A stretch of 64,000 bases of DNA from an uncultured Sorangium sp. (GCA_966250485.1 CBINHN010000004.1:99726-163725), one strand, 5' to 3'; shown: positions 7,806 to 52,542, numbered from the stretch's first letter. Numbers and translations: made by a program. Notes: generated from the letters alone by a model not told the origin.

Positions 7806-7812
7806 CAAAGGA

Positions 7813-14487: not shown

Positions 14488-14530
14488 GGTTGGGCTCGCT
14501 TTATCGTCACCGCTTCGGCGAAGCGCATCA

Positions 14531-19945: not shown

Positions 19946-19955
19946 GAGCTTCCCG

Positions 19956-32128: not shown

Positions 32129-32129
32129 T

Positions 32130-37607: not shown

Positions 37608-38399
37608 TCATGTGCCGAGCGCGGGCGCGCTGGTGACTTCCAGGCCAGCGAAGGCAACGTCGTCGAGCAGGGCGCGCACGACCGGACGAGGGCGCTCCAA
37701 CGCAAAGAAATGGCCGCCGGCGAAGGAGCGCAACGAGCTCGCTTCGCGCGCTTCCTGCTGCCACGGCAGTACCAGATCGAGCGGCGCCTCTTCGTCCTCC
37801 TGTCCGCGGAAGATGGATAGCGGCACATCGAGCGGCGGACGCCGAACGTACTCGTACGTTTCGATCACTTTGAAGTCAGCGCGCAGCACGCCTATGAACA
37901 GCGCGCGCAGCTCGGGGTCATCGAGCAACACGCTGGGAGTGCCGCCGAAGCGGCGAATCCTGGCCTCGACTTGCTCGTCCGGTAAGAGGTGCAACACGCG
38001 GCCGCCGACACCAGTGGAGGGTGCTCGACGGCCCGAGACGACCAACCGCAGCGGCGGGCGCTGTCCCTCGCCGCGGATGCGGTGAGCGAGCTCGAACGCG
38101 AGCAGCGCGCCGAAGCTGTGGCCGAACAGCACATAAGGCGTCTCGAGCAGCGGCGCGATGTTCGTGTACACGGCTTCGACGAGCGGCATCATGGACTCGA
38201 TGGCGGGCTCGTTCAGACGCTCGCCGCGCCCCGGCAACTGCAACGCGCAAGCGTCCACCCCTGCGGGTAGGTGCTCGGCCCAGGATCGGAACGAGGTGGC
38301 GCTCCCCCCAGCGTGCGGAAGTAAGAATAGGCGAAGCTTGGCGTCGTTCTCCGGCCGCAACCGGAAGAGCCACTTCTTCGCCACCGTCGAGCTCATCAT
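37608..38399 (-). CDS. Type II (discrete, editing-type) thioesterase, alpha/beta hydrolase
   Basis: Track ORF 37608..38813. I trimmed the start to the ATG at 38399 (MMSSTVAKKWLFRLRPENDAKLRLFLLPHAGGSATSFRSW), which overlaps the TGA of the upstream PKS-NRPS (ATGA). The product is 263 aa. Motifs: PHAGG, nucleophile elbow GHSFG, C-terminal GGHFF. The longer N-terminal extension in the track lies inside the upstream gene. Confidence 0.88.
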   Translation of the reverse strand: MMSSTVAKKWLFRLRPENDAKLRLFLLPHAGGSATSFRSWAEHLPAGVDACALQLPGRGERLNEPAIESMMPLVEAVYTNIAPLLETPYVLFGHSFGALLAFELAHRIRGEGQRPPLRLVVSGRRAPSTGVGGRVLHLLPDEQVEARIRRFGGTPSVLLDDPELRALFIGVLRADFKVIETYEYVRRPPLDVPLSIFRGQEDEEAPLDLVLPWQQEAREASSLRSFAGGHFFALERPRPVVRALLDDVAFAGLEVTSAPALGT

Positions 38400-41300
38400 G
38401 ACTGCCTCCTTGAAGCGGACGCCAGCGCCGCCCGCTGTGCCTCGGCGCGTCGCCGCGCCTGCGCCGCGCGTTCGTTGCGCGCCGGCTCGGCGAGCAACCG
38501 AGCCAAGCCCTGCACGGTCGTATGTTGGTACATGTCCACCAGGGGAAGCTCCTTGCCGCTCCGCTCCGCGATCAGCGCGCGAGCCCGAGCAATCAGGAAC
38601 GAGCTGCCACCCACGTCGAAGAAGTTGGAGTGCAGGTCGAATGAGCGCCGGCCGAGGAGCTCCGCCCAAACGTCGGCCACGAGCCGTTCCGCGTCGGAGC
38701 GAGGCTCGCGCTCGACGTCGCTGGTACGTCCAGCGTGGCTGGGGGCCGGCAAGGCCCGACGATCGATCTTGTTGTTCGGCGTGCGCGGTAGCGCTGGCAA
38801 CTGCTCGAACCAACCCGGGATCATGTAATCGGGCAGCGAGCGGCGAAGGTGGCTGCGCAGCGCTGGCTCGTCCACCGCAACATCGCTCACGACGTAGGCG
38901 ACCAGCTCCGGAACGCCGCCGGGCCGCTCGTGCAGCACGGTGACACTCTCCCGCAACGCGGGATACGTGCCGAGCGCCGCGTCAATTTCTCCGAGCTCCA
39001 CGCGATAGCCGCGAATCTTGACCTGCGTGTCCGCGCGACCGAGAAACTCCAGCACGCCGTCGCCGCGCAGCCGCACGCGGTCCCCTGTGCGATACGCGCG
39101 CTCGCCAGCCAGCCAGTGCGGGCGGACGAAGCGCTCCCGCGTCAGCTCCGGGCGACCATGATAGCCCTCCGCGACGCCGTCCCCAGCGATGAGCAGCTCC
39201 CCGATTGCGCCCAACGGAACCGGCCGCAGCTCAGCGTCGACGACGTAGACGCGGGTATTCGCGACGGGTCGACCGATCGGGATGGACTGCCCGAGATCGC
39301 TTCGGGTCAGCGGGTGCACCAGCGACCAGATGGTGGTCTCCGTGGGACCGTACAGGTTGAAGACACGACCGCGGTCGAGCAGCGCGGCCGCGAGCTCCGG
39401 CGGGAGAGCTTCTCCGCCACACAAGATCTTGAAGTCGTGGTGGCCGCGCCAGCCTGCATCGACCAGCATGCGGAACGTGATGGGAGTGGCCTGCAGCACC
39501 GTCGCGCGAGTGTCGGCGAGGAGCCCGGCGAGCGCGACGCCGTCGAGCGTCGTGGCCCGTGACGCCAGCACCAGCGTCGCACCGACGATCAACGGTAAGA
39601 ACAACTCCAACGCCGCAATATCGAAGGACACGGTCGTGACCGCCACCCACACGTCCGCGTGCGTGGCGCCGGGCGTCGCCTTCATCGACCACAACAGGTT
39701 GGTCAGCGAGCGGTGCGCGACGCGCACGCCCTTCGGGCGCCCCGTGGAGCCCGAAGTGTAGAGCAAGTATGCGCCAGCCTCGAAATCGATCGCCTCCGGC
39801 TCGTCGCAGCGCGCGCAGTCCTCGTAGAGCTGCTCCATTTGCAGCACTTGTCCGCGGAAACCAGCGAATTGATCCGCGAGCGCGCCGCTCGTAAGCGCGA
39901 ATGCTGCGCCGGAGTCCTGTAAGATGAAGGCGCTGCGTTCTTGCGGGTAAATGGGATCCAGCGGGACATATACGGCGCCCGCGCGCAGCAGCGCGAGCAA
40001 CGTCACCACGAGATCGCGCGAGCGCTCGAGCAGAACGCCCACGTGAGCGCCGCTAGCGATCCCACGCGCGCGCAGCTGAGCGGACACATTACTCACGGCT
40101 GCCGCGAGCTCGCGGTAGCTCATCGCGCCTTGCGCATCGACGAGGGCCGTCTTCGAGGCGAACTCCTGCGCGGCGGCAGAGAACAGCTGGGGCACCGTGG
40201 CGCGCGGATACTCCGCCTGCGTCGCGTTGAGCTCCCGCTCCGCAGCAGCCCAATCGGTCGCGCCGATCACCGGCAAGGCCGCGAGCTCTACCTCCGCTTG
40301 CGCGGCGATGGCTTCGAGCAGCGTGAAGTACGTGCCTACCAGCCGCTCCACGCTGCGCGCGTCGAACAAGTCGCTGTTGTACTGAGCCAGCGCCGAGTAC
40401 CGCCCTGACGCTTCCGCCAGCACCATCAGCTCGAGGTCGAATCGCGCCTTGTACTGCGGCACCTCGATCGATTCGAGCTCCAGCGGTCCCAGCCGCAGCC
40501 TACCCCCCGCGCGGCCGTCGGTGAACGGGTGCAGCGCGGGCATGCTGCTCGCCTGCTGCAACACGAACACGGTTTGGAAAAGAGGCGAGCGGCTCGCGTC
40601 GCGCGGCAGGCGCAGGGCGTCGATCATGAGCGGCAGCGGATAGTCCGCGTGCTCCAGCGCCCCCAGCATCGCCTCGCGCACGCGCGCGAGCAGCGCCCGA
40701 AACGAAGCGATGTCGCTGAACTGCACCCGAATCGGAAGCGGGTTCACCAGGTCGCCCACGGTGCGTTCGAACCGGCCCTGCGAGCGCCCCGACGAATACG
40801 TCCCGACGACGATGTCGGATTGTGCCGAGTGACGGTGCAGGGCCGCCAAGAAGCCGGCCAGCAACACGGTGTGCAAGGTCGTCGCCGACTCCTGTGCCAG
40901 TTGCTGCAGCGCCGCCACGAGCTCCGCCGGCAGCGGACGAAAATGCGTGTCGCCGCGGTAGGTCTGGAGCGCCGGACGCGGACGGTCGCTCGCCAGATCG
41001 AGCGGCACCGTGCCGGCCAGCGTAGCGACCCAGTACTCCCGTGACCGCGCTCCTTCGGCGCTGCTGAGCCAGCGTTGCTGCCATGCCACGAACTCGGGGT
41101 AGTCCGCGGTGACCGCGGGCAGCCGGGGCGGCTCGCCCGTGGCGGCCGCGGCGTAGGCGTGAGCAAGCTCTTCCAGCACGACCACTAGCGACGCAAAGTC
41201 GATGATGATGTGGTGCAGAGTGATAGAAATGACGTCGCCAGTACTCGCGCCGCTGAACACGCTCACGCGCAACGGAGGCTCACGCAGCGAGAACGGCTCG

Positions 41301-44300
41301 TGAAACTCGCGCGCCAGCGCCTCTCGCAGCGCGGACTCGCTCCAGCCCTGCGCGTCAGTGAGCCGCCACTCGAAGGTCCAGCTCGACCTGCCAACGGCGC
41401 TCATTTCGCCGCCCTCCACGACGAACGCGCTGTGCAACGCCGAGTGCCGCGCCGTGACCACCCCTACCGCGGCGCGGAACGCCGTGACATCGAGCTTGCC
41501 GCACACGCGCGCGGTAAACCCGTAGTGGTAAGCGGCGCTCGCGGGCGCGAGCTCGTGAATGAACGCCAGCGCTCGTTGATTCCACGACAGCGCGCCGTGC
41601 GGCACAGGCGCCGCCTCGGCGAGCGCCGGCTCCGACGCCGCTCGCGCGTCACGCTGCTCGTCGCGTTCCATGCTCTCCAGCAGCCAGGCGCCGAGCTGCA
41701 CGACGGTTGGTCCTTGCAGCAATTTGACCGTGGAAATTGCCATCGCAGCCTCGCGCTCCAGTCGACGCCGCAGCTCCACGGCCATCAGCGAATCGAGCCC
41801 GAGACGGTTGAGCGGCACGTCCAGGGGGAGCTCGGAGCGCCGCTGCCCGAGCACCTGCGCCACCATGTCCGCAAGCCGCTCACGCGCCAAATCCGCCCGC
41901 TGTTCTGGCGCGGCAGCGAGCACCGCCGCGCGGCACTCGAGGCCGCCAGGCGCGGGCCTCGGCTCGGCCGCTCGCAGTCGCGTCAAGCGCAGCCCTTGCA
42001 CGCGCAGAACGGCGCGCCCGGCGGCGTCGAACGCCGAGAGCTGCACGCAAGCGACGTCTCCTTCGATCTGCGCAGTGGCGACGACGCGCTCGCTGCCGCT
42101 CAGCGCCGCATCGATGGCCAGCTCCTCGATGCCGCTCGCCAACCACACCGCGTCGGAGTCCGGCAGCGCGTGCGCTGAGACCTGAAAACAGGCGTCGAGG
42201 AGCGCGGGATGAACGACGAAGCGAGAAGCCTGCGCGCGCGTCTCCTCACAGGGCGCGAGCTCGCCGATCGATGTCCCAGGCGCGCCCCAGACGCGCGCCA
42301 CGGCGCGGTAAGCGCCCGTCAGCTCTAGGCCGCGCGCGGCGAGCCGCGCATAGTGCTCGGCCTCGCTGATTTCCTGCATCGCGTCGCTCACGGCGTCCAC
42401 TGGACACGCTGGGGTCGCCCGCGCACCGCGAGCCAGCGACAGCTCGGCGTGCAATGTCCACTCCGCGTCGGGCTCGGGCAGCGCGCTGTACACCTGCACC
42501 TGCGCTCGTTGCCCGCCGGCGCGGAACAGCACCTGCACCCGCCGTGGCTCGTCTCCCAACACCAACGGCGATGGCAGGCTCAGGCCGCGGATGGTACTCA
42601 CCTCCCCGAGCAGCTCGCGTCCCGCGGCCAGAGCCATCTCGACGTACGCGGAGCTCGAGAGCAGCACGTCGCCCTGGAAGCGATGCCCCTCCAGAAACGC
42701 GGGTGAGGTGCTCGTGAGCAAGGACTCGAACACCTGGACCGGCTGCGCGCCCGCGAGCGGCACGCGCTCGCCGAGCAGGCTATCGGAGGTGAGCTGGCGC
42801 GCAGACTTCGAGGTTTGCGCGCCTTGCGGCCAGAACGACCGCCCCTCGAACGGATACGCCGGCAAGCTCACCACGCGGCTCTCAGCGGGCACGAGCGCGC
42901 CCCAATCGGCGTCGTGCCCGCTCGTGTACAGCGCCGCCAGGGTACGGCGCATGGACACGCGCTCGTCCTGCTCGCGCACCAGAGAGCCGAACGTGACCAC
43001 GTCGCGGCCGCTCTGCGCAAAGCCCTGGCGCAAGGAGGTGAGCGTGATGGGGTGCGGGCTAATCTCCAGAAACGACGTGGCACCCTCGTCGCAAGCGCGC
43101 GAGATCGCGGTCCAGAAGCGTACCGGGTCGACCACGTTTCGAATCCAGTACTCCGTGTCCAGTCGCTCGGGCGCGATGCGCTCTGCCATCACCGCCGAGT
43201 AGTAGGGCACGGCTTGCGAACGCGGAGTGATCCCGGCGAGCGCCTCGCGCATCTCCGGAATGACAGCGCGAAGCTGCGGCGAGTGACCGGCGACGTCCAC
43301 GTTCACGTAGCGGCAGAACACGCCGCGTTCGCGCAGCGGCACCAAGAACGCTTCGATGAGCGCGCGATCTCCCGAGAGCACGCACGACTCCGGGCCGCTC
43401 TCCACCGCGACGGCCACGCGATCGGCGAATGACGCGACCGCCTCGCGCGCCGCTGCGAACGGCAGATCCACGACCGCCATGGCCGTGTCGCCCGGCGCAC
43501 GCCGCATGATCGCGCTGCGCAAGCTGATGACGCGCGCCGCGTCCTCGAGCGACAACGCGCCCGCGACGTGCGCCGCCGCCACCTCTCCCATGCTGTGGCC
43601 CACGACGGCTCGCGGCAGCACGCCCCAGGCGCGCCACAGCGCCGCGCACGCCACCTGCAGGGAGAAGATCGCGGGCTGTACGAAATCTAGCTTGTCGTTG
43701 CGGAAGCCGGGCCCCGGCCGCGCGAGCTCATCGAGCAAGGACCAGCCGACGTGCGGGCGCAGCGCTCGATCGCAGGCGAGCAGCGCTTCCCGACTGGCGG
43801 GCTCGAGGAGCAGCTGCTGACCCATGCCCTTCCATTGCGAGCCGTGACCGGAGAACACGAAGACGGCCTGGCGGCTGTCGCCTGCTTGGCCGACGTGCAA
43901 CGCATGGCTAGCTTCGCCGGCCAGGTGCGCCGCGAGCTCTCGCGCGGCTTCCGCGGCGGAGCTCGCGCAAAGCGCTAAACGATGGCGGTAGTGACGCCGG
44001 CGCGCGCTCGCAGTGTAACAAACGTCCGACCACGGCGAGCGCTCGCAAGCGAGCTCGTGAACGAAGCGCTCCGCCGTCGTCCGCAGAGCTTGCGGGCTAG
44101 CGGCAGACAAAGTGAGAACGCAAGCTCCTTCCTCGCCCTCGGCCGTCAGCGCCCCTGGTGCCGGCGCCGCGCCGGCTAGCACCACGTGCGCGTTGCCGCC
44201 GGATAGCCCGTAGGAGCTCACTCCTGCGATGCGACGCTGCCCCGGCCAGTCCTCGGTCCGGGTCTGAACCCGCACTGGCAACGTGTCCCAGGGCACGGCG

Positions 44301-45439
44301 CGGTTGGGGGTCGAGAAATGCAAACTCGCGGGCAACACACCGTGATGCAGCGCTAGCGCCACCTTCATCAAACCGGCGATCCCGGACGCGGCCTCGGTGT
44401 GGCCGATGTTGGTCTTGACGCTGCCGAGCGCGCACCGCCGAGCGCTTCCCGTCGCGGCGATGGCCTCGCCCACCGCCTGAATTTCCAGCGGATCGCCCAC
44501 GCGCGTGGCGGCGCCGTGCACCTCGACGTACTCGACGTCCCCCGCCGCTACCTGGGCGTCCTCGAACGCTCGCGCCAGGAGCTCACGATAGGCGTCCACG
44601 CTCGGTGTCATCAGCGTCGCGCTGCGCGCGCCGTTGGAGCTCAGCGCCGAACCCCGCACGACGGCATAGATGCGATCGCGATCCGCGAGCGCATCGGCTA
44701 GTGGCTTGAGCACGACCACGCCAGCGCCTTCGCTGCGCACGAAGCCGTCCGCTGAATCGTCCGCGAATTTGCAGCGACCGTCGGCGGCCAAAATGCCGCC
44801 CTGGCACAGCGAGATGAAGCCGCGCGGACGCAGCAGCAGATTGACGCCGGCAGCGAGCGCCAACCGGCACTCCCCCGAACGGAGACTCTGCAACGCGAGG
44901 TGCACCGCGCTGAGCGACGAAGCGCACGCCGCATCCAGCGTGAGGCAGGGCCCCTCGAAGCCGAATGCGAACGCCACCCTGCCGGCCAGGAAGCTGCGGT
45001 CGCCGCCGGTCGTCGCGTAGACGTCGAGCAAATCGGGCGTGAGCAGCACCTCGGCGTAGTCGTTGGCGTGCGCGCCCACGAAGACGCCCGTACGGCGAGC
45101 CTCCGTCGTGCTGCCGCGCCAGCCTGCGTCGTCCAGGGCTTCCCACGTCAGCTGCAGCAGCAGCCGCTGCTGCGGGTCCATGCGCAGCGCCTCCCGCGGG
45201 GACACGTTGAACAGCGCGTTGTCGAACGAGGCGATGTCGTCGATGAAACCGCCGCGACGCGTGTAGATTTTTCCGCTCACGCCCGGACGCCGATCGAACA
45301 GCGCGTCCGCGTCGAAGCGCGAGCGCGGGATCTCGCCCACCGTTTCGCGGCCTTCCGCGAGGAGCGACCAGAACTCTGCCAGGCTGTTCGCCCCCGGCAG
45401 GCGACACGCCATACCCACGATCGCGACCGCGCGTTCCAT
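38396..45439 (-). CDS. Hybrid PKS-NRPS megasynthase: KS-AT-DH(degenerate)-ACP-C-A(Gly)-PCP; probable first assembly-line protein
   Basis: Track ORF, 2347 aa, ATG at 45439. The KS starts at residue 3 (MERAVAIVGMACRLPGA) with no N-terminal docking region. Domain motifs and coordinates are given in the seven domain features that follow. Confidence 0.95.
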   Translation of the reverse strand: MERAVAIVGMACRLPGANSLAEFWSLLAEGRETVGEIPRSRFDADALFDRRPGVSGKIYTRRGGFIDDIASFDNALFNVSPREALRMDPQQRLLLQLTWEALDDAGWRGSTTEARRTGVFVGAHANDYAEVLLTPDLLDVYATTGGDRSFLAGRVAFAFGFEGPCLTLDAACASSLSAVHLALQSLRSGECRLALAAGVNLLLRPRGFISLCQGGILAADGRCKFADDSADGFVRSEGAGVVVLKPLADALADRDRIYAVVRGSALSSNGARSATLMTPSVDAYRELLARAFEDAQVAAGDVEYVEVHGAATRVGDPLEIQAVGEAIAATGSARRCALGSVKTNIGHTEAASGIAGLMKVALALHHGVLPASLHFSTPNRAVPWDTLPVRVQTRTEDWPGQRRIAGVSSYGLSGGNAHVVLAGAAPAPGALTAEGEEGACVLTLSAASPQALRTTAERFVHELACERSPWSDVCYTASARRRHYRHRLALCASSAAEAARELAAHLAGEASHALHVGQAGDSRQAVFVFSGHGSQWKGMGQQLLLEPASREALLACDRALRPHVGWSLLDELARPGPGFRNDKLDFVQPAIFSLQVACAALWRAWGVLPRAVVGHSMGEVAAAHVAGALSLEDAARVISLRSAIMRRAPGDTAMAVVDLPFAAAREAVASFADRVAVAVESGPESCVLSGDRALIEAFLVPLRERGVFCRYVNVDVAGHSPQLRAVIPEMREALAGITPRSQAVPYYSAVMAERIAPERLDTEYWIRNVVDPVRFWTAISRACDEGATSFLEISPHPITLTSLRQGFAQSGRDVVTFGSLVREQDERVSMRRTLAALYTSGHDADWGALVPAESRVVSLPAYPFEGRSFWPQGAQTSKSARQLTSDSLLGERVPLAGAQPVQVFESLLTSTSPAFLEGHRFQGDVLLSSSAYVEMALAAGRELLGEVSTIRGLSLPSPLVLGDEPRRVQVLFRAGGQRAQVQVYSALPEPDAEWTLHAELSLARGARATPACPVDAVSDAMQEISEAEHYARLAARGLELTGAYRAVARVWGAPGTSIGELAPCEETRAQASRFVVHPALLDACFQVSAHALPDSDAVWLASGIEELAIDAALSGSERVVATAQIEGDVACVQLSAFDAAGRAVLRVQGLRLTRLRAAEPRPAPGGLECRAAVLAAAPEQRADLARERLADMVAQVLGQRRSELPLDVPLNRLGLDSLMAVELRRRLEREAAMAISTVKLLQGPTVVQLGAWLLESMERDEQRDARAASEPALAEAAPVPHGALSWNQRALAFIHELAPASAAYHYGFTARVCGKLDVTAFRAAVGVVTARHSALHSAFVVEGGEMSAVGRSSWTFEWRLTDAQGWSESALREALAREFHEPFSLREPPLRVSVFSGASTGDVISITLHHIIIDFASLVVVLEELAHAYAAAATGEPPRLPAVTADYPEFVAWQQRWLSSAEGARSREYWVATLAGTVPLDLASDRPRPALQTYRGDTHFRPLPAELVAALQQLAQESATTLHTVLLAGFLAALHRHSAQSDIVVGTYSSGRSQGRFERTVGDLVNPLPIRVQFSDIASFRALLARVREAMLGALEHADYPLPLMIDALRLPRDASRSPLFQTVFVLQQASSMPALHPFTDGRAGGRLRLGPLELESIEVPQYKARFDLELMVLAEASGRYSALAQYNSDLFDARSVERLVGTYFTLLEAIAAQAEVELAALPVIGATDWAAAERELNATQAEYPRATVPQLFSAAAQEFASKTALVDAQGAMSYRELAAAVSNVSAQLRARGIASGAHVGVLLERSRDLVVTLLALLRAGAVYVPLDPIYPQERSAFILQDSGAAFALTSGALADQFAGFRGQVLQMEQLYEDCARCDEPEAIDFEAGAYLLYTSGSTGRPKGVRVAHRSLTNLLWSMKATPGATHADVWVAVTTVSFDIAALELFLPLIVGATLVLASRATTLDGVALAGLLADTRATVLQATPITFRMLVDAGWRGHHDFKILCGGEALPPELAAALLDRGRVFNLYGPTETTIWSLVHPLTRSDLGQSIPIGRPVANTRVYVVDAELRPVPLGAIGELLIAGDGVAEGYHGRPELTRERFVRPHWLAGERAYRTGDRVRLRGDGVLEFLGRADTQVKIRGYRVELGEIDAALGTYPALRESVTVLHERPGGVPELVAYVVSDVAVDEPALRSHLRRSLPDYMIPGWFEQLPALPRTPNNKIDRRALPAPSHAGRTSDVEREPRSDAERLVADVWAELLGRRSFDLHSNFFDVGGSSFLIARARALIAERSGKELPLVDMYQHTTVQGLARLLAEPARNERAAQARRRAEAQRAALASASRRQS
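38495..38707 (-). other. PCP (thiolation) domain
   Basis: FFDVGGSSFLIARA (a GGxS core) at residues about 2273-2286, followed by a basic Arg/Ala-rich tail (ERAAQARRRAEAQRAALASASRRQS). Confidence 0.8.
38744..40207 (-). other. NRPS adenylation (A) domain, predicted glycine-specific
   Basis: Core motifs: LLYTSGSTGRPKG, FDIAALE, NLYGPTETT, GELLIAGDGVAEGY, YRTGDRVR, GRADTQVKIRGYRVELGEI, PNNKIDR. The 10-residue code read against GrsA positions is D-I-L-Q-L-G-L-I-W-K. Confidence 0.85.
40280..41593 (-). other. NRPS condensation (C) domain
   Basis: HHIIIDFAS (an HHxxxD core without the usual following Gly) at residues 1409-1417. The domain length and its position between ACP and A fit a C domain. Confidence 0.8.
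41675..41902 (-). other. ACP domain
   Basis: LGLDSLMAVELRRRLE, Ser at residue 1217 (about nt 41789-41791). Confidence 0.85.
41960..42787 (-). other. DH-like domain, partly degenerate, in a module without KR
   Basis: EGHRFQGDVLLSSSAY (His retained; Pro of HxxxGxxxxP is Ser), LELTGAYRAV in place of GYxYGPxF, HPALLDACFQ (Asp retained); residues about 885-1160. Confidence 0.6.
42920..43867 (-). other. AT domain with non-canonical specificity motif (VAGH)
   Basis: FVFSGHGSQW (His where Gln is usual), GHSMGE, VNVDVAGHSPQ; residues about 525-840. Confidence 0.8.
44165..45433 (-). other. KS domain of the hybrid protein (catalytic Cys/His/His retained)
   Basis: LDAACASSLSAVHLA (Cys retained, so not a KSQ/KSY), EVHGAATRVGDPLE, NIGHTEAASG; residues about 3-425. 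Confidence 0.85.
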
Positions 45440-45450
45440 CAGCCGTTCCT

Positions 45451-46071
45451 TCAGTAGTTGCTCGCGCTGCGCGCGACGCTGGCCTTGGCCTCAGCGGCCA
45501 GGTTCAAGAAGTTGCGCGCGATGAGCTTGCCCGACGGGGTACCGATGGACTCTGGGTGAAACTGCACGCCGAACATCGGCCAGTGCCGGTGACGGAAGGC
45601 CATGATGGTGCCGTCCCAAGTCTTCGCTGTAACCTCGAGCTCCGACGGGAGGCTCCCCGGATCCGCGATCAAGGAGTGATAGCGCATCGCCTCGAAGGCG
45701 CGCGGGACGTCCGCGAACAGCGGGTGACCATCGTGAAAGACGTAGCTCGTCTTGCCGTGCATGGTCTCCGCGGCTCGCACCACCTTGCCGCCCAGGACGT
45801 GCGCGATGCCTTGGTGACCCAAGCACACGCCCAAGATGGGAGTCGTGGCGCCCAGGAAGCGGATTACGTCGGCGCAGACGCCGAAGTAAGCCGCGTCGTC
45901 GGGGCGGCCCGGGCCCGGCGAAATGACGATGAAATCCGGATCGAGCTGGCGCACGCGCTCGAGTGAAATCGCGTCGTTGCGTACCACCGCGGGCGCGGCC
46001 GACAGGCTGCCGAACAGCTGATAGAGGTTGTGCGTGAAGGAGTCGTAGTTGTCGAGGATGAGACCGCTCAT
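45451..46071 (-). CDS. pabA: Glutamine amidotransferase, aminodeoxychorismate/anthranilate synthase component II (PabA-type)
   Basis: Track ORF 45451..46374. I trimmed the start to the ATG at 46071 (MSGLILDNYDSFTHNLYQL), which overlaps the pabB stop (ATGA). The product is 206 aa. Motifs: class-I GATase GVCLGHQ (nucleophile Cys) and FHPES. The stop lies 11 nt before the PKS-NRPS start. Confidence 0.88.
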   Translation of the reverse strand: MSGLILDNYDSFTHNLYQLFGSLSAAPAVVRNDAISLERVRQLDPDFIVISPGPGRPDDAAYFGVCADVIRFLGATTPILGVCLGHQGIAHVLGGKVVRAAETMHGKTSYVFHDGHPLFADVPRAFEAMRYHSLIADPGSLPSELEVTAKTWDGTIMAFRHRHWPMFGVQFHPESIGTPSGKLIARNFLNLAAEAKASVARSASNY

Positions 46072-47627
46072 GTTTCGGCTCCCAGACTGATGGCGTTGCG
46101 CAGCGCTCGCTCTAGGGCTGCCGCCTTGTCCAGCGTCTCGCGATACTCGCCGAGCGGGCTCGAGTCCGCGACCACGGCGCCGCCGACGCTGAAGTAGCAG
46201 CGCCCGTCTTTCACGAGGAAGCTGCGAATGACGATGTTCAGGTCGAGCAGGCCACGATCGTCCAGATAGCCGACCGCGCCGGAGTAGATGCCGCGCTTGT
46301 ACGGCTCGAGCGCGTCGATGATCTTCATGGCCTCGATCTTCGGCGCGCCCGTCATCGAGCCGCCTGGGAAGCAAGCCCGGATCAAATCGAATGCGTCGCG
46401 ATCGGCCCGCAGCTTGCCGCGGATCGTCGAGACCATCTGAAATACCGTCGCGTACTGCTCGATGACCATGAGCTCCGGCACGTGGACCGTATCGATCTCA
46501 CAGACGCGGCCGAGATCATTGCGCACCAAGTCGACGATCATCACGTTCTCGGCGCGATCCTTGACCGATCGGAACAGGTCCGCTCGCAGCTCCGCGTCCT
46601 GCTCCGGCGTAGCGCCGCGCGGACGCGTTCCCTTGATCGGCCGGCTCTCCGCGACGCGCTCCCCGTCCAGACGAATGAAGCGCTCCGGCGACGAGGACAC
46701 CAGCTGCCCCCACGGGAAATTGAGGTAGCACGCGAACGGAGCCGGGTTGATGCGCCGAAGCTCGCCGTAGAGTAGCCAGGGGTCACCGCCGTAGCGCGCC
46801 TCACGCCGATGCGTGGTGCAGACTTCGAAGATGTCGCCAGCGCGGATATGACGCTTGGCCTGCTCCACCGTCTCGATGTAGCTCGCCTCGCTCGCGTGAC
46901 CTTCGATGTCCCCGGCCGTACCCGAGGCTGCACGCGCTTCCCGGCTCACCGTGGATCGCGCCTCGAGCCCCGCGATCTGCGTGAGCACGCTCTGCCGGCG
47001 CATTTCGATCCGTCGTCGCGCGCTGGCTTCATCGGCCGCGAACGCGCTGACGCACAGGTACGAGCGGCTGCGGAGGTGGTCATGGCACCACACCACGTCA
47101 GCCATCATCATGGTCACGTCCGGCAGGTTGAGATCGTCGCGACCGAGATTCGGCAGCCGCTCGATCAGGTAGCCCGCCTCGTACGCGAAGTAGCCGACCA
47201 TGCCCGCGCAGAACGGCGCCGGCGCGTCCGTCCACGCGGGGGCGCGCCGCTCGTCCGCCGCACGCCGTAGAGCTTCGAACGGCTCGCAGCTGAGCTCCGC
47301 GCGCAGCGGCCGCTCGTAACGCGCGCCGCTCTCGTCGCGCAGCGTGATCCACGCTGCGTCCGCTGGCTCGCCCGGTGAAGCGCCGGGCCTGCGCCTGGCC
47401 TCGAAGACGCGCTCCGGCTCACCGATCAAGAACGAGTAGCGGCCGAGCGACTCGGCGTCCCGCGCGCTATCGAGCAGCGCAGCGTACGGCTCGGAGCGAT
47501 AGAGCTCGAAGTAACTCCAAAACTCACGCTGCAGCTTCAGCTCGAAGACGGCGTCGACACGCAGCCGACCGTTGGGAGCCTGAGTCGTTCGCTGGATGGT
47601 CATAGGCGAGCTCCGGGCAAACGTCAC
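46068..47627 (-). CDS. pabB: Chorismate-utilising enzyme, aminodeoxychorismate synthase component I (PabB-type)
   Basis: Track ORF, 519 aa. Motifs: SSPERFIRL, RPIKGTRPRG (Lys as in E. coli PabB PIKGT; TrpE has PIAGT), DRAENVMIVDLVRND, FPGGSMTGAPK. The start at 47627 is a GTG by my reading; an in-frame ATG at 47603 (MTIQR) is an alternative. Confidence 0.85.
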   Translation of the reverse strand: MTFARSSPMTIQRTTQAPNGRLRVDAVFELKLQREFWSYFELYRSEPYAALLDSARDAESLGRYSFLIGEPERVFEARRRPGASPGEPADAAWITLRDESGARYERPLRAELSCEPFEALRRAADERRAPAWTDAPAPFCAGMVGYFAYEAGYLIERLPNLGRDDLNLPDVTMMMADVVWCHDHLRSRSYLCVSAFAADEASARRRIEMRRQSVLTQIAGLEARSTVSREARAASGTAGDIEGHASEASYIETVEQAKRHIRAGDIFEVCTTHRREARYGGDPWLLYGELRRINPAPFACYLNFPWGQLVSSSPERFIRLDGERVAESRPIKGTRPRGATPEQDAELRADLFRSVKDRAENVMIVDLVRNDLGRVCEIDTVHVPELMVIEQYATVFQMVSTIRGKLRADRDAFDLIRACFPGGSMTGAPKIEAMKIIDALEPYKRGIYSGAVGYLDDRGLLDLNIVIRSFLVKDGRCYFSVGGAVVADSSPLGEYRETLDKAAALERALRNAISLGAET

Positions 47628-47631
47628 AGCC

Positions 47632-49059
47632 TCAAGTTCGTAGGTCGAAGAAGCGCTTGGCCTTGAATTCGGTGCGCGGAAGCGAGCCGAAGGGAACGAC
47701 CACCACCGTCACCTCGATGCCAAGCGCGCCTTTGAGCCGACGGGCCACCTGCTGACCGACCTCCGCGTAGTTACTCTTGGGAATTTCCGAGCGCGGTTCC
47801 ACGATCGCGCGCAAACGATCCATGTCGTTCTCTCGCACGAGCTCGACCTTGAAATCGTCTCCCAGCTCCTCCTGGCTGCGGATCGCGTCCTCGATGGCCG
47901 AGGGATAGAACGTCAGACCGCGCACCTTGATCAGCTGATCGCTGCGACCATGCAAGCCGCCAATGACTCGCGCGTGCGTGCGCCCACAGCCGCAGCGCTC
48001 CCGCGTGATGCTGGCCCAATCACCCATCACGTAACGAAGCACGGGCTGCGCCTCGCTGAATAAATTGCTGACCACGAGCACGCCGCGAACGCCGTCCTCG
48101 ACGGGTCGCCACGTCTCCGGGTGGACCACCTCCGCGTAGTAAGCGTCCTCCGTCAGGTGCGTGTCGACGCCGTCCTGCCGCTCGACTTGGTACTCGCAGG
48201 TGTAGCCCAGCGGAGACATCGCAACTTCGGTGCAACCGAAGTCGTCGTGCACCTTGGCTCCCCACAGCTGTTCGATGCGCGCCTTCGTTGCGGGCACGCA
48301 CGCGCCCGGCTCGCCCGCCGCCACGATCCGGCGAATCGACGAGGCCGCGGGATCCTGTCCCAGCTCCTGCATGACGCGCGCGAGGTAGCAGGCATAAGAT
48401 GGGGTGCACAACAGCAGCGTCGGCTTGTAATTTTCGATCATCGCGATGCGGCGCTCGGAGTTGCTGCCGCCGCCGGGGATCACTGGGACGCCCATCAGGT
48501 TGAGCGCGTAGTGCAGGCCCCAAAAGGCCACCGAGGTGCCATAGCCGAAGCAGTTGATGGCCACGTCACGGCCGCGCCGTACGCCCATGGCGTAGAGAGA
48601 GCGCGCGCCGTGCCAACTCCAGAGCTCGCGATCGAAATTCGTGTGGCGGAACGCGCGCGGCGTCTTCGCCGTGGTGCCGGACGTGGAAAACATCATCCAC
48701 CCGTCGTTCAGCCAAGCATCTTGCGTCAGCGGCGAGAAGGTGCCCCACGGCGGCGAGCGCTGCTGATCGATGAGCCACTCTTCGCGATGCGTGAGCGGCA
48801 CCTTCGCGAGATCAGCGATCCCGCGGACGCTATCCGGACCGAGGCCGGACATTTCGAATTTGTTTCGATAGAACGCGCTGCTGTCCCACAGATAACGATA
48901 CGCAAGCGCCACTCGCTCGCCCTGGAGCCGGCGGAGCTCGGCGGGGCTCGCGCACTCGTAACGCGGAGCCCAATAGCGCTCGTCGGCAGGCTCACCATAC
49001 GGCTTCGCGTGCTCGCGCCCGAAATCAAGCCACCTCTTTTTGCTCGACTCCATCTGCAA
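47632..49059 (-). CDS. Phenylacetate-CoA ligase (PaaK)/F390-synthetase family adenylate-forming enzyme; putative aryl-acid (PABA?) activating ligase
   Basis: Track ORF, 475 aa. Family-typical features: N-terminal YWAPRYECASPAELRRLQGERV, STSGTTAKTPRAF (the P-loop-like AMP-binding motif of the PaaK family), LLCTPSYA, VAAGEPG. The track start at 49059 reads as TTG by eye; the ATG two codons in (49053, MESSKK) is the likelier start. Confidence 0.75.
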   Translation of the reverse strand: MQMESSKKRWLDFGREHAKPYGEPADERYWAPRYECASPAELRRLQGERVALAYRYLWDSSAFYRNKFEMSGLGPDSVRGIADLAKVPLTHREEWLIDQQRSPPWGTFSPLTQDAWLNDGWMMFSTSGTTAKTPRAFRHTNFDRELWSWHGARSLYAMGVRRGRDVAINCFGYGTSVAFWGLHYALNLMGVPVIPGGGSNSERRIAMIENYKPTLLLCTPSYACYLARVMQELGQDPAASSIRRIVAAGEPGACVPATKARIEQLWGAKVHDDFGCTEVAMSPLGYTCEYQVERQDGVDTHLTEDAYYAEVVHPETWRPVEDGVRGVLVVSNLFSEAQPVLRYVMGDWASITRERCGCGRTHARVIGGLHGRSDQLIKVRGLTFYPSAIEDAIRSQEELGDDFKVELVRENDMDRLRAIVEPRSEIPKSNYAEVGQQVARRLKGALGIEVTVVVVPFGSLPRTEFKAKRFFDLRT

Positions 49060-49081
49060 AACTCCGATCCTAAATTTCCAC

Positions 49082-49993
49082 TCACATCGCGCCGGCTCGG
49101 CTGACCAAATCCATGAATGCTGCCGACAAACGTCGAAACACGGGCCCTGGCGCGCGGGCGGCGTACGCCCCTGCGACGCTTCGAATCGGCAGTAGCTCCA
49201 TCACCGTGCTCGTAAAAAACAGCTCGTCGGCCGCTAACATCGTCGGCACGTCGAGCGCGGTCTCGCGGGCCGTCACGCCGAGCTCTCGCGCGAGGCGAAG
49301 CACGACAGCGCGCGTCACTCCCGGTAATGCTCCGCACTCGAGCGCGGGCGTCACGACGTCTCCGCCGATCACTGCGAACAAATTGGACACGGTTCCGGAC
49401 ACGACTTCACCAGTCGGCGAAAGTTGGATTCCCTCACTGAACCCCTGCTCCTCGAGCTCACGACGCGCCAAAATTGTCGGCAAATAGTTGATTGATTTGA
49501 TGCTCGTATCCAGGCAGCACGCCGGAACACGACGCTTCGTCAGCAACGTCGAAGCAATTCCGTCGCTGTACGAGCCTGCAGAATAGCGGGGCAGTGGACG
49601 AGCGACGATCGACAGGGTCGGCGCGCCGGCGTGCGAAGTGGCGATGCCCGCACCGCCGACGCCACGCGTGAGAGTCACGCGCACGTAAACCTCGGGCTCA
49701 TTGGCGCGTTCCACGCATTCCTGCAGGGCCCGCAGCAACGCGTCACTGCTTAGAGGCAGCGGAATACCGGCCACCGCCGCCGAGTGAAGCAGGCGTTGAA
49801 CGTGCTCCGGCGCTGCAAACAGCCGCCCGCCGTAGCTGCGTAGCGTATCGAACACTCCATCGCCCAGTAAATGCCCGCGATCCAGGACGCTGATGCGCGC
49901 GGCGCTTGGCTCGACGAAGACACCATCGAGGTAAATCTGGCCGAGCACAGCGCCCGCAGGCGGAGCCCTCGAGCGGAGAGAGGCCGCCGTCAT
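49082..49993 (-). CDS. pabC: Class IV (fold type IV) PLP aminotransferase family; by context 4-amino-4-deoxychorismate lyase (PabC-type)
   Basis: Track ORF 49082..50266. I trimmed the start to the ATG at 49993 (MTAASLRSRAPPAGAVLGQIYLDG), which is preceded by GGGAG. Motifs: VLDRGHLLGDGVFDT, SIKSINYL (PLP Lys context), GTVSNLF, GALPGVTR. The family alone cannot separate ADC lyase from BCAT/DAAT; I assign it from linkage to pabA and pabB. Confidence 0.7.
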   Translation of the reverse strand: MTAASLRSRAPPAGAVLGQIYLDGVFVEPSAARISVLDRGHLLGDGVFDTLRSYGGRLFAAPEHVQRLLHSAAVAGIPLPLSSDALLRALQECVERANEPEVYVRVTLTRGVGGAGIATSHAGAPTLSIVARPLPRYSAGSYSDGIASTLLTKRRVPACCLDTSIKSINYLPTILARRELEEQGFSEGIQLSPTGEVVSGTVSNLFAVIGGDVVTPALECGALPGVTRAVVLRLARELGVTARETALDVPTMLAADELFFTSTVMELLPIRSVAGAYAARAPGPVFRRLSAAFMDLVSRAGAM

Positions 49994-50306
49994 CTGTCGT
50001 CTCCCGTTCTTGCCATTACTCCCACGCGTACAACCGCTGCTTCGTAACGATATTCCCTCGAGCAGCTGCGCGCGTCGCCGCCTCGCAGCTGCCACAACCC
50101 GCGCGTCATCACCAATAGTAATTCGACGACCAAGATCGGTCGCGGCCACCAGTGGTTCGTTTTCTAAATGATCCGTGTGCTGTGTGTCAAGGCACCGTCC
50201 CGCAGTTGTCATGTCGCGATACGTCAGCTCACTGTGTCGATCGCGTTTTCCGTCGACGCGGGTCACCCAGCAGGCGTATGTAAACGAGTGCTGGCAGGGA
50301 GGTCCG
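49994..50306. promoter_or_regulatory. Divergent intergenic region; candidate bidirectional promoter for the long minus-strand operon and the plus-strand ACAD/FkbH pair
   Basis: This is the only sizeable non-coding gap in the left 52 kb (313 bp). It is visibly less GC-rich than its surroundings (runs such as ccaatagtaattcg, gttttctaaatgatcc, gtatgtaaacgag). GGGAG/GGGAGG Shine-Dalgarno-like boxes sit before both flanking ATGs. I could not assign a -35/-10 or sigma-54 box with confidence. Confidence 0.4.
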
Positions 50307-51461
50307 ATGGGAGTTCGATTGAACGCAGCACAGCGCGAACTGCAAAGACACTATCGCGAGTTCGCGGCGGAACACGTCACACCAGCCGCGAGCCGCTTCG
50401 ACTCCGAGCAGAAGCTAGCGCCCGAGCTCATCGTGGAGCTCGCGCGCGGCGGCTTCCTCGCGGCCTTGGTGCCCGCTGATTTCGGCGGAAAACCAGTGGA
50501 TTTCGTCAGCTACGGGTTGATGCACGAAGAGCTCGGGCGTGCCTGCTCCTCGACGCGCAGCTTGATCACCGTGCATTCCATGGTGTGCCTCGCGATCGAT
50601 CGCTGGGGCACGCGTGAGCAGCGGACGACGTGGCTGCCGGCGTTGGCACGAGGTGACAGCATCGCCGCGTTCGCGCTGACTGAGCCCAACGCCGGCAGCG
50701 ACACCAGCGCGATCGAAACGAATCTCACACGCACGAGTGGCGGTTTTCGCCTGAACGGGAAGAAGACCTGGATCACGTGCGGACAACTCGCCGGGGTGTT
50801 CCTCGTGTTCGCCAAGCTCGAGGGTGCTCCGTGCGCGCTGCTGGTTCCCGGCGACACTCCCGGCTTCTCACGACAGCCGATCTTCGGAATGCTCGGTTGC
50901 CGCGCCTCGATGTTGGCCGAGCTCACGTTTGATGATTGTGAGATCCCCGAGAGCGCGCTGCTCGGCCGGCCTGGCTTTGGATTGTCGCACGTCGCACAAA
51001 GCGCGCTGGACAACGGTCGCTACTCGATCGCCTGGGGCTGTGTTGGCCTGCTGCGCGCTTGCGTCGAGGCCAGCGTCGCGTATGCAAACGAACGCAGGCA
51101 ATCCGGCGCGGCAATCGTCGATCAGCCGCTCGTGCGCCGGCTGCTCACGAACATGGTGACGGAGCTCAAGGCGGCGCGCCTCCTGTGCTGGAGCGCGGCG
51201 CTGGCCCGCAGCGCCAAGCATCCGAACTCGCTGCTGGAGGTGGCGCTCGCCAAGTACTACGCGTCGACTGCGGCCGCGCGGGTCGCCGCCGACGCGGTTC
51301 AAGTCCACGGCGCACGAGGTTGCAGTGACCGCTACGCGGTGGAGCGCTGGTACCGCGACGCGAAGATCATGGAGATCATCGAAGGCTCGACGCAAATCCA
51401 ACAGTCGCTGATCGCGGCGCACGCCTCGGAGCTGCTCGACAGCGACGAGGAGTGGAGCTGA
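50307..51461 (+). CDS. Acyl-CoA/acyl-ACP dehydrogenase family flavoprotein (FkbI-like by context)
   Basis: Track ORF 50175..51461. I trimmed the start to the ATG at 50307 (MGVRLNAAQRELQRHYREFAAEHV), which is preceded by GGGAGG. Motifs: FALTEPNAGSD, GKKTWIT, RDAKIMEIIEGSTQIQ (catalytic Glu position retained). Confidence 0.85.
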   Translation: MGVRLNAAQRELQRHYREFAAEHVTPAASRFDSEQKLAPELIVELARGGFLAALVPADFGGKPVDFVSYGLMHEELGRACSSTRSLITVHSMVCLAIDRWGTREQRTTWLPALARGDSIAAFALTEPNAGSDTSAIETNLTRTSGGFRLNGKKTWITCGQLAGVFLVFAKLEGAPCALLVPGDTPGFSRQPIFGMLGCRASMLAELTFDDCEIPESALLGRPGFGLSHVAQSALDNGRYSIAWGCVGLLRACVEASVAYANERRQSGAAIVDQPLVRRLLTNMVTELKAARLLCWSAALARSAKHPNSLLEVALAKYYASTAAARVAADAVQVHGARGCSDRYAVERWYRDAKIMEIIEGSTQIQQSLIAAHASELLDSDEEWS

Positions 51462-51462
51462 C

Positions 51463-52542
51463 ATGAACCGGCCCGAGCTCGCTGATGCGGGCGTGGGGCG
51501 CGAAGAGCGCTCGCGCGTGAAGTGCCTGGTGTGGGATCTGGACGAAACGCTCTGGCACGGCGTGCTGCTGGAAGGCGGCGGGCGAGAGCTACGACCGGGA
51601 GCCGTCGCGCTGATCGAGGAGCTGGATCGGCGAGGCGTGCTGCAGTCGATTGCCAGCAAGAACGACGCGGATCTCGCCTGGCGCCGCCTGCAGGAGCTGA
51701 AGCTGCAGCAGTACTTTCTTCATCCGCAGATTCATTGGGGACCCAAGTCCGAATCGATGCGCACCATCGCGCGCGAGCTCAACATCGGCCTCGACACGCT
51801 CGCGCTGCTGGACGATCAGCCGTTCGAGCGCGACGAGGTCCGCTTCGCCCTGCCGGAGGTGCTTTGCTTGGACTCTGGCGACTTAGAACCGCTGTTCACG
51901 CACGCCGCGCTGAACCCCAAGTTCGTCACCGAGGAGTCACGGCTGCGCCGCCAAATGTACATCGGCGACGCCGCGCGCAAGAACGCGGAACAATCCTTCA
52001 CGGGTACCCCCGAGGAATTCTTGTCGTCGCTGCAAATGCGCTTCCGGGTGCACCGGGCAGTGGAGCAGGACCTCAGGCGCGCCGAAGAGCTCACGCTGCG
52101 CACCAATCAGCTCAACACGACCGGCTACACGTACAGCTATGACGAGCTCGTGCGCCTCCAGCACTCGGATGAGCACACCGTGCTCGTTGCTAGCCTCGAC
52201 GATCGCTACGGGAGCTACGGAAAGATCGGGCTCGGACTGATCGAGCGCCACGCCGGCATTTGGAAGATACGGCTTCTGCTGATGTCCTGCCGCGTGATGT
52301 CGCGCGGCGTAGGTACGATCATGCTGCGCCACATCATGGCGATGGCGCGTCGCTCGGGGGTGCGGCTGCAGGCGGAGTTCGTCGCCAACGATCGCAACCG
52401 CATGATGTACGTGACCTACAAGTTCGAGGGCTTTCGGGAAATCAAATCCGCACCGCCGTGGAGTCTGCTGGAGGCAGATCTCACGCGTGCGCCCTCGTTC
52501 CCCGGCTACGTCGAGTTAGACCTCGAGGCCTTCGGCCAGTAG
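51463..52542 (+). CDS. FkbH-like HAD-superfamily IIIC protein (candidate glyceryl-S-carrier loading enzyme)
   Basis: The ATG lies 1 nt after the ACAD stop. Motifs: HAD motif I VWDLDETLWHG, IASKND, LLDDQPFER, and the FkbH-type Cys motif LLLMSCRVMSRGVG. The 359-aa size fits stand-alone FkbH proteins. Confidence 0.75.
   Translation: MNRPELADAGVGREERSRVKCLVWDLDETLWHGVLLEGGGRELRPGAVALIEELDRRGVLQSIASKNDADLAWRRLQELKLQQYFLHPQIHWGPKSESMRTIARELNIGLDTLALLDDQPFERDEVRFALPEVLCLDSGDLEPLFTHAALNPKFVTEESRLRRQMYIGDAARKNAEQSFTGTPEEFLSSLQMRFRVHRAVEQDLRRAEELTLRTNQLNTTGYTYSYDELVRLQHSDEHTVLVASLDDRYGSYGKIGLGLIERHAGIWKIRLLLMSCRVMSRGVGTIMLRHIMAMARRSGVRLQAEFVANDRNRMMYVTYKFEGFREIKSAPPWSLLEADLTRAPSFPGYVELDLEAFGQ

Follow-up and report, generated by a model that had tools for sequence, protein, structure and literature searches.

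Gene organization at the locus

The window analysed here is a 64,000-nucleotide stretch of DNA from an uncultured Sorangium sp. (GCA_966250485.1 CBINHN010000004.1:99726-163725), within which a cassette of four genes lies immediately ahead of a polyketide synthase (PKS)-nonribosomal peptide synthetase (NRPS) assembly line. The cassette is predicted to make 4-aminobenzoate (PABA) from chorismate and to activate it. A PABA-derived starter unit, delivered as 4-aminobenzoyl-coenzyme A (CoA) and priming the first ketosynthase (KS1) directly, is the best-supported explanation of this arrangement, and one in which we place moderate confidence. The genes concerned are as follows.

49082..49993, minus strand: class-IV pyridoxal phosphate (PLP) enzyme, 303 aa (Pfam Aminotran_4, 5.8e-56)
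47632..49059, minus strand: PaaK-family ligase, 475 aa as the longest open reading frame (ORF), 473 aa from the ATG at 49053
46068..47627, minus strand: PabB, 4-amino-4-deoxychorismate (ADC) synthase component I, 519 aa as the longest ORF, 511 aa from the ATG at 47603
45451..46071, minus strand: PabA/TrpG-type glutamine amidotransferase, 206 aa (GATase, 4.6e-53)
38396..45439, minus strand: M1 megasynthase, 2347 aa, with ketosynthase (KS), acyltransferase (AT), dehydratase (DH), acyl carrier protein (ACP), condensation (C), adenylation (A) and peptidyl carrier protein (PCP) domains in that order by Pfam
37608..38399, minus strand: type II (editing) thioesterase (TE), 263 aa (Pfam Thioesterase, 1.2e-47)

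Transcription runs from the class-IV gene through the PaaK-family ligase, PabB and PabA into M1, all on the minus strand. The original prediction, made from the sequence alone, had placed these four genes directly before the first megasynthase on one strand, separated by 22, 4, -4 and 11 nt. The arrangement is confirmed, the same four genes having been called independently by the gene caller of the source ENA contig (ERZ27393559 NODE_16, 130,867 bp, where window position w corresponds to record position w+8794). The spacers are exact with longest-ORF starts and become 28, 28, -4 and 11 nt when the ATG starts of the gene caller are used. At the pabB/pabA junction the PabA start overlaps the PabB stop (ATGA), and the 11-nt spacer between pabA and M1 carries an AGGA-type ribosome-binding sequence ahead of the M1 ATG. 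Co-transcription of the cassette with M1 is indicated by this 11-nt spacer with its ribosome-binding site, the shared strand and the lack of a terminator; 0 terminator-like sites were found at 45000-50600, compared with 3.2 expected in shuffled sequence, in a scan that is uninformative for this taxon. No clear signal of horizontal transfer is detected in the cassette, with GC content at third codon positions (GC3) of 0.71-0.87 compared with 0.79-0.84 in the PKS genes. By E-value, the family assignments of the cassette proteins lie far beyond chance.

PabB and PabA

The chorismate-binding protein is, by sequence criteria, a PabB-type ADC synthase, for which formation of ADC from chorismate is predicted. 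Pfam detects Chorismate_bind (5.4e-89) together with Anth_synt_I_N, and the protein scores above the NCBIfam cut-off for pabB (TIGR00553, 358.7 vs 328.4 bits) and below that of trpE_most (384.4 vs 517.7 bits). It falls under all TrpE, isochorismate synthase and salicylate synthase cut-offs, the isochorismate and salicylate models far under. Since whole-sequence similarity in the PDB fails to split ADC from anthranilate synthases (top matches being the ADC synthases 8hx6, 7pi1 and 1k0e at 264-274 bits, with the TrpE 7bvd at 265 bits), diagnostic residues were inspected. The motifs SRPIKGTRPRG and FPGGSMTGAPK are present, the former with the PIKGT of E. coli PabB in place of the PIAGT seen in E. 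coli TrpE, and PIKGT is retained in 14 of 14 syntenic PabB homologues. The lysine of this motif (K274 of E. coli PabB) has a catalytic role, PIAGT being the form found in anthranilate synthases.

PabA likewise exceeds the cut-off of its model (TIGR00566 trpG_papA, 197.4 vs 121.05 bits) and contains the motifs GVCLGHQ and FHPES of the Cys-His-Glu triad of class-I glutamine amidotransferases. The pabB- and pabA-like identities originally proposed for the two proteins are therefore upheld by these cut-offs and motifs, and assignment with hidden Markov models (HMMs) matched all four families expected of the cassette, Chorismate_bind, GATase, Aminotran_4 and the PaaK-type ligases.

The class-IV PLP enzyme

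The class-IV protein is the least secure assignment of the cassette. No NCBIfam cut-off was reached, for either ADC lyase (ADCL) or branched-chain aminotransferase (BCAT), and overall similarity weighs against a lyase. The best NCBIfam model is a BCAT subfamily (220 bits, cut-off 363), while the best ADCL model, the Bacillus-type PRK07650, gives 160 bits against a cut-off of 308. In the PDB, archaeal BCATs are the best matches (168 bits) and no ADCL exceeds 90 bits (the score of 2y4r, P. aeruginosa PabC), and identity is 31% to E. coli IlvE compared with 25% to E. coli PabC. Whole-sequence similarity is not decisive for this enzyme, and a residue-level test was used instead, based on aligning the window protein with IlvE and PabC of E. 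coli and with five syntenic homologues.

The BCAT active-site signature F-x-G-x-R includes the Gly38 position of E. coli IlvE. In the class-IV protein this position is occupied by Thr50, and the score of 220 bits lies below the BCAT cut-off, so that neither the signature nor the score places the protein among the BCATs. Seven residues are strictly conserved in four PabC structures (F27, T29, H43, R46, K140, G199 and R202 in the P. aeruginosa enzyme; PMC3174152), and all seven are present, as F48, T50, H64, R67, K166, G225 and R228. Six of them are also common to BCATs, the exception being Thr50. The corresponding threonine is the proposed proton donor of PabC and is kept in 123 of 129 PabCs, with serine in five more (PMC3174152). 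In the alignment, Thr or Ser occupies this column in all six cassette proteins and in E. coli PabC, whereas IlvE has Gly. In addition, an active-site tyrosine, Tyr170, lies four residues past the PLP lysine and matches the 'position II' tyrosine that typifies the Legionella and Thermus PabCs (PMC3174152).

Combined, the PabC residue set and the constant pabB neighbourhood suggest that the class-IV protein is an ADC lyase, probably of the position-II type, although BCAT-like overall. The pabC-like assignment is the least firm step of the original prediction: the seven PabC residues, including Thr50, and the coupling to pabB bear it out, while the protein as a whole is closer to BCATs and reaches no ADCL cut-off.

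The PaaK-family ligase and its distribution

The ligase combines AMP-binding (PF00501) and AMP-binding_C_2 (PF14535) domains, and a TSGTT loop and a CxCGRTH motif are visible in its translation. Its best NCBIfam matches are PaaK models (1.9e-79 and 1.3e-74) and its best PDB matches the PaaK structures 4r1l and 2y27 (223 and 213 bits), consistent with the family first proposed for it. Sequence comparison places it in an uncharacterised PaaK subfamily, apart from the phenylacetate-CoA ligases.

The closest relatives, 46-77% identical, are encoded in a Polyangiaceae metagenome-assembled genome (MAG), Stigmatella species, many Planctomycetota MAGs, Gemmatimonadales and a Scalindua MAG. A PIKGT-type pabB, mostly with pabA, is observed within about 2 kb of the ligase gene in 16 non-redundant loci distributed over Myxococcota, Planctomycetota, Gemmatimonadota and Scalindua. 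In nine of these a class-IV gene is adjacent or nearby, adjoining pabB and the ligase gene in eight (L001, L002, L003, L005, L008, L015, L027 and L030) and 6 kb off in the ninth (L024); several pabB-ligase loci are without one.

The remaining neighbours differ between lineages. In Planctomycetes (MAG loci L003, L008, L009, L018 and L019) the ligase, often together with pabB and pabA, is partnered by a conserved protein of ~374 aa that carries a GNAT domain at its N-terminus and matches no NCBIfam model, an arrangement which suggests a pathway of N-(4-aminobenzoyl) transfer. The Scalindua cassette is accompanied by a small ACP, a second acyl-CoA ligase and a methyltransferase. In Stigmatella erecta (L002, FOIJ01000006.1, 8554-17145) the four-gene cassette lies between an SRPBCC (Polyketide_cyc2) protein and a type III ketosynthase (KSIII) with a fatty acyl-AMP ligase-ACP (FAAL-ACP), and ABC transporter genes come next. 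Among the products of Stigmatella strains are 5-nitroresorcinol and long-alkyl nitrocoumarins, the myxocoumarins, which take their aromatic part from the shikimate pathway (PMC3869339); that the cassette locus is linked to these compounds is speculation only. In a deltaproteobacterial MAG (L030, VBLP01000129.1, ~4513 to 1, minus strand) a modular PKS diverges from a class-IV/pabB/pabA/ligase cassette. At the N-terminus of this PKS, Pfam finds an ACP-like domain (PP-binding, 22.8 bits) that has GVTA where the phosphopantetheine site would be GxDS, and so lacks the Ser; the domain may be a vestigial loader.

GNAT enzymes, KSIIIs and KS domains accept acyl-CoA thioesters, and the observed partners therefore fit a CoA-ligase function acting on an ADC-derived substrate, most simply PABA. 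From the pabB synteny and these acyl-CoA-using partner enzymes we infer PABA as the substrate and its CoA thioester as the product. The cassette, which occurs without a PKS in other lineages, is a portable unit that predates the association with PKSs and is not peculiar to the present line. We tentatively propose, at somewhat less than even confidence, that ligase, PIKGT ADC synthase and class-IV lyase make up an undescribed, phylum-spanning 'aminobenzoyl-CoA' supply module. In different lineages this module would serve different acceptors that consume acyl-CoA, whether a modular PKS, a GNAT N-acyltransferase or a KSIII paired with a FAAL-ACP, and here it would directly prime a KS that has neither loader nor carrier. 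Our search of the open-access literature turned up no account of a PaaK/ADC-synthase cassette. If the proposal is true, the cis-AT PKS-NRPS product of the locus would be the first from a myxobacterium to start with PABA, and the ligase would define a new PaaK substrate class. The widespread, unstudied ligase-pabB cassette is also the more general lead: the pairing of ligase and ADC synthase in Planctomycetota, Gemmatimonadota, Scalindua and myxobacteria points to unstudied use of PABA outside folate metabolism, and hundreds of genes now named 'phenylacetate-CoA ligase family' stand to be annotated through the activity of this subfamily.

The head megasynthase M1

The N-terminus of M1, MERAVAIVGM, places only 4 aa ahead of the KS core, with neither a loader nor an N-terminal docking domain, and the nearby pabA stop, at a distance of 11 nt, prevents any upstream extension of the protein. 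The KS1 active site is complete, with its Cys (DAACASS) and both His residues. Retention of the Cys-His-His set indicates a condensing KS, not a decarboxylating loader of the KSQ type. KS1 is also an outlier, with 43-51% identity to the other KSs compared with 55-66% among KS3-9. The AT motif, VAGH, is atypical and is regarded as not predictable (PMC10646177). Module 1 has no ketoreductase (KR), and its DH (residues ~888-1161 of M1) is degenerate, reading HxxxGxxxxS in place of a final P and with a degenerate GYxYGPxF-type motif.

The A domain of M1 contains the motifs FDIAALE, TVLQATP, ILCGGEA, NLYGPTETTIW and NNKIDRR, from which the code D-I-L-Q-L-G-L-I-W-K was read by hand, its positions being numbered after GrsA-PheA. 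This is the canonical glycine code. PABA was considered as the A-domain substrate and rejected, because this is the only A domain and it carries the code for glycine; PABA is thus not an NRPS substrate and the cassette feeds no NRPS module. The sole full-length M1 orthologue in the protein database, from Chondromyces apiculatus DSM 436 (P0122; 45% identity over 98% of the length), shares the VAGH AT and the glycine code, and its DH keeps HxxxGxxxxP.

The TE gene start overlaps the M1 stop, and the enzyme is a discrete 263-aa protein on the source contig. It is of type II, a class that we assign from its N-terminal motif, LFLLPHAGGSATSFRSW.

Extent of the assembly line

Downstream of the TE, two further features continue the line on the minus strand to the start of the window.

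2283..37592, minus strand: six single-module cis-AT PKS proteins, M2-M7 (Pfam domains)
1..2283, minus strand: 5' part of the next PKS gene (3325 aa whole), leaving the window at its start

By Pfam, M2, M3, M5 and M7 are KS-AT-DH-KR-ACP and M4 and M6 are KS-AT-DH-ER-KR-ACP, the latter including an enoylreductase (ER). M2 has only 11 residues before its KS, which is of the post-NRPS hybrid type (RFPGA, VQTACSTS) and hence fits a PCP-bound donor. Each of M3-M9 has a helical N-terminal docking region of ~35-40 residues, with a matching acidic C-terminal tail on the preceding protein. AT motifs are HAFH in M2, M5 and M9 and VASH in M3, M4, M6, M7 and M8. The whole 3325-aa gene starting at 2283, KS-AT-DH-KR-ACP-KS-AT-KR-ACP, is seen on a 99.97% identical contig from a second sample (L007, 15523-25523; ERZ27393303 NODE_25, 180,699 bp), where a 2308-aa PKS gene comes next. 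The line so far comprises at least 10 PKS modules and one NRPS module and runs on beyond the start of the window. On this evidence M1 is assigned as the head of a collinear line.

Several module segments are nearly identical. The AT regions of M5 (17324-18286) and M2 (35031-35993) are 99.9% identical over 963 bp, and M7 and the module after it, M8, are ~91% identical in their KS-AT regions. These segments, which have a strongly negative GC skew on the plus strand, suggest recent gene conversion or duplication between modules.

Flanking genes

Upstream of the cassette, the window contains the following.

49994..50306, strand not applicable: divergent intergenic region with presumed promoters (coordinates from gene calls)
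50307..52542, plus strand: acyl-CoA dehydrogenase (ACAD; FkbI-like, 384 aa) and FkbH-family phosphatase/acyltransferase (359 aa), by Pfam and TIGR01686

A search for a sigma-70 consensus in 49994..50306 found none, in a scan that is uninformative for this taxon. The two genes beyond it are divergent from the cassette. The ACAD protein matches Acyl-CoA_dh_N, _M and _1 in Pfam, and the FkbH-family protein exceeds its cut-off (277.7 vs 146.65 bits). In the fkbGHIJK pathway, FkbI- and FkbH-type enzymes are two of those that make hydroxy- or methoxymalonyl-ACP. Within the window, no ACP, no FkbK-type 3-hydroxyacyl-CoA-dehydrogenase gene and no O-methyltransferase were found as partners for the pair, which is predicted to represent a partial pathway to a glycerate-derived unit, hydroxy- or methoxymalonyl-ACP. 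The VAGH AT of M1 may plausibly be linked to this pathway, module 1 then taking a glycerate-derived extender. The right border of the cluster lies at ~52.5-53.7 kb, beyond which are MutY, an SBF-family transporter and pyruvate dehydrogenase E1. Between FkbH and these housekeeping genes, a 379-aa ORF (52516-53655, minus strand) gives weak TPR matches only and could be placed in no family.

Origin of the starter unit

As the head of the line, M1 is without a loader or a carrier for the starter, and the starter must therefore come in trans. The PaaK-type ligase is the only acyl-activating enzyme visible in the operon. In the pathway that we propose, PabA and PabB would convert chorismate and glutamine to ADC, from which the class-IV PLP enzyme would remove pyruvate to give PABA, and the PaaK-family ligase would convert PABA to 4-aminobenzoyl-CoA. 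This thioester would then acylate the active-site Cys of KS1 directly, M1 having no loading AT, ACP or CoL domain. Module 1 would add one unit through its VAGH AT, perhaps a glycerate-derived unit from the FkbH/ACAD genes, without ketoreduction, after which C-A(Gly)-PCP would add glycine. The chain would move collinearly over at least nine further cis-AT PKS modules, with the type II TE editing mis-primed carriers. With a degenerate DH and no KR in module 1, the chain is predicted to begin as 4-aminophenyl-CO-CH(X)-CO-NH-CH2-CO-.

The original prediction had the cassette supplying the starter of the downstream line. This is supported by an M1 without loader or docking domain, by a divergent and catalytically complete KS1 and by the glycine-specific A domain. 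It had also named no described myxobacterial cis-AT PKS-NRPS primed in this way and had called the product plausibly new, which agrees with our search: no myxobacterial PABA-primed PKS was found in the open-access literature, only the cystobactamid-type use of PABA by NRPSs.

Besides the BCAT-like scores of the class-IV protein, several observations weigh against a PABA-derived starter. PaaK enzymes classically accept arylacetates and not benzoates, and the ligase falls under the PaaK equivalog cut-offs (267 and 251 bits vs 700 and 646). Among loci whose flanks are adequate, six have a ligase homologue and no pabB nearby. A carrier protein that could hold the starter is not visible, and priming of a KS directly from a CoA thioester is, even for aureothin, a proposal. 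KS1 is 42% identical to the KS beside the L030 cassette, no closer than to other KSs. At least 90 kb downstream lie outside the part seen, where a separate loader or ACP is possible.

The cassette-made, activated PABA might instead be a tailoring acyl group or release partner, which the ligase or a downstream acyltransferase would attach as an ester or amide to a hydroxyl or amine of the finished polyketide. KS1 would then be primed by another route, for instance through decarboxylation of its extender or through an ACP or activating enzyme whose gene lies further downstream. We consider this unlikely. The ligase does give weak matches to AjiA1 (6wuq) and the NatL2-type 6siw in the PDB and to BagE/FevW in NCBIfam, which we take to be ester- or amide-forming enzymes of aminobenzoate-type pathways, but its scores are far higher against true PaaK CoA ligases (223 bits) than against the ester-forming enzymes (47-49 bits). 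Pairing of the Planctomycetes cassette with a GNAT-type acyltransferase and not a KS would fit such a role, and the far end of the cluster lies outside the part seen. However, no acyltransferase for a tailoring step was found within the window, and the cassette is translationally packed onto a loader-less head module, the usual place of starter-supply genes being beside the head module.

A product other than PABA is improbable. In this case the class-IV protein would be a genuine aminotransferase, or would act otherwise on ADC, and the ligase would activate another chorismate- or ADC-derived acid as the starter. The top scores against BCAT models and structures with no ADCL cut-off reached, the BCAT-like residues Tyr107/Arg109 and Tyr170, and the absence of a class-IV gene from several pabB-ligase loci are in its favour. 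The function of class-IV enzymes is also hard to infer from sequence, as illustrated by Rv0812, which is reported to be a bifunctional ADCL and D-amino acid aminotransferase (DAAT) (PMC8105722). Set against these are the ADCL-specific Thr/Ser, present in all cassette members where BCAT has Gly, the presence of all seven PabC-invariant residues, and the assignment of the same Tyr170 to the 'position II' PabC type (PMC3174152). Nor was a PapB/PapC-type mutase or dehydrogenase for other fates of ADC found nearby.

There is little probability that the four genes stand apart from the PKS and only happen to adjoin it, serving folate supply or the same small-molecule pathway as in Planctomycetes and Stigmatella, while the line starts with acetate or an FkbH glycerate-derived unit. 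FkbH-type enzymes supply glycerate-derived starters in some PKSs, the FkbH/ACAD genes are next door, and the same cassette is found without any PKS in many genomes. Yet the 11-nt spacer with its ribosome-binding site, the common strand and the lack of a terminator point to co-transcription with M1, and folate synthesis needs no CoA ligase. A start from the FkbH product would require an ACP, whereas M1 has none at its N-terminus, and KS1 has its Cys and hence is not a decarboxylating loader of the KSQ type.

M1 and the following TE as the last module of a non-collinear gene order, with PABA as A-domain or release substrate, is at first sight suggested by a layout of PKS module, NRPS module and TE, but this is effectively refuted by the canonical glycine code, the discrete type II TE, the missing docking domain of M1, the short N-terminus and post-NRPS hybrid KS of M2, and docking pairs that run collinearly from M2 through M3 to M9 and continue past the window.

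Direct priming of KS1 by 4-aminobenzoyl-CoA accordingly remains the preferred reading of the locus, the use of PABA by the ligase, the CoA thioester, entry at KS1 and the extender of module 1 being what we infer. If true, the cluster would make an undescribed, long myxobacterial hybrid polyketide built by at least 10 PKS modules and one glycine module, with a free arylamine terminus that would be a chemically addressable handle. It would further be a second modular PKS primed without a loading domain, phylogenetically remote from aureothin, and useful for engineering starter-unit exchange.

Comparison with known systems

At the level of the individual enzymes, the class-IV protein resembles the PabCs of E. 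coli, P. aeruginosa, L. pneumophila and T. thermophilus in its type IV fold, PLP lysine, Thr proton donor and F/H/R/G/R active-site set, and those of L. pneumophila and T. thermophilus in the position-II tyrosine; it differs in its low identity (25% to the E. coli enzyme), in being nearer to BCATs overall and in falling under the ADCL HMM cut-offs. The ligase shares its two-domain architecture with the PaaK phenylacetate-CoA ligases (2y27, 2y4n and 4r1l; 213-223 bits), but its subfamily is syntenic with ADC synthase and not with paa catabolic genes.

In aureothin biosynthesis, the first PKS protein reportedly has no dedicated loading domain. CoA-activated p-nitrobenzoate derived from PABA is what the Streptomyces PKSs for aureothin and neoaureothin use (PMC6718629), and their system (AurG, a PabAB; AurF; AurE, an acyl-CoA ligase; AurA) resembles the present one in a cluster-own ADC synthase, a discrete aryl-acid CoA ligase and an aryl-CoA starter, here predicted, for a modular cis-AT PKS (PMC6718629). 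Unlike aureothin, the window system has no N-oxygenase, and the amine is therefore presumably kept. It further differs in a PabC-like gene, in pabA and pabB as separate genes, and in a glycine NRPS module straight after module 1. Its ligase is PaaK-type, the family of AurE lying outside this comparison, and its host is a Polyangiaceae-like myxobacterium and not an actinomycete.

In candicidin/FR-008 (PabAB, PabC and the FscA loading module), cluster-encoded PABA synthesis feeds the starter of a modular PKS, and PABA is activated by a CoA-ligase-type domain with an ACP inside the loading module. PABA synthesis is likewise encoded next to a modular PKS here, with the difference that the ligase is free-standing and PaaK-type and that there is no loading ACP. 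Among the NRPS systems, cystobactamid is reported to come from a myxobacterial cluster with its own PABA supply (PMC7966384), and is similar to the window in this respect. In cystobactamid and albicidin, A domains select PABA, which is anilide-linked, whereas the sole A domain here is specific for glycine and entry of PABA via the KS is proposed. By analogy, the locus would thus function like the starter systems of aureothin and candicidin, while differing from them in ligase family, gene set, the lack of a loading domain and N-oxygenase, the early glycine module and the phylum of its host.

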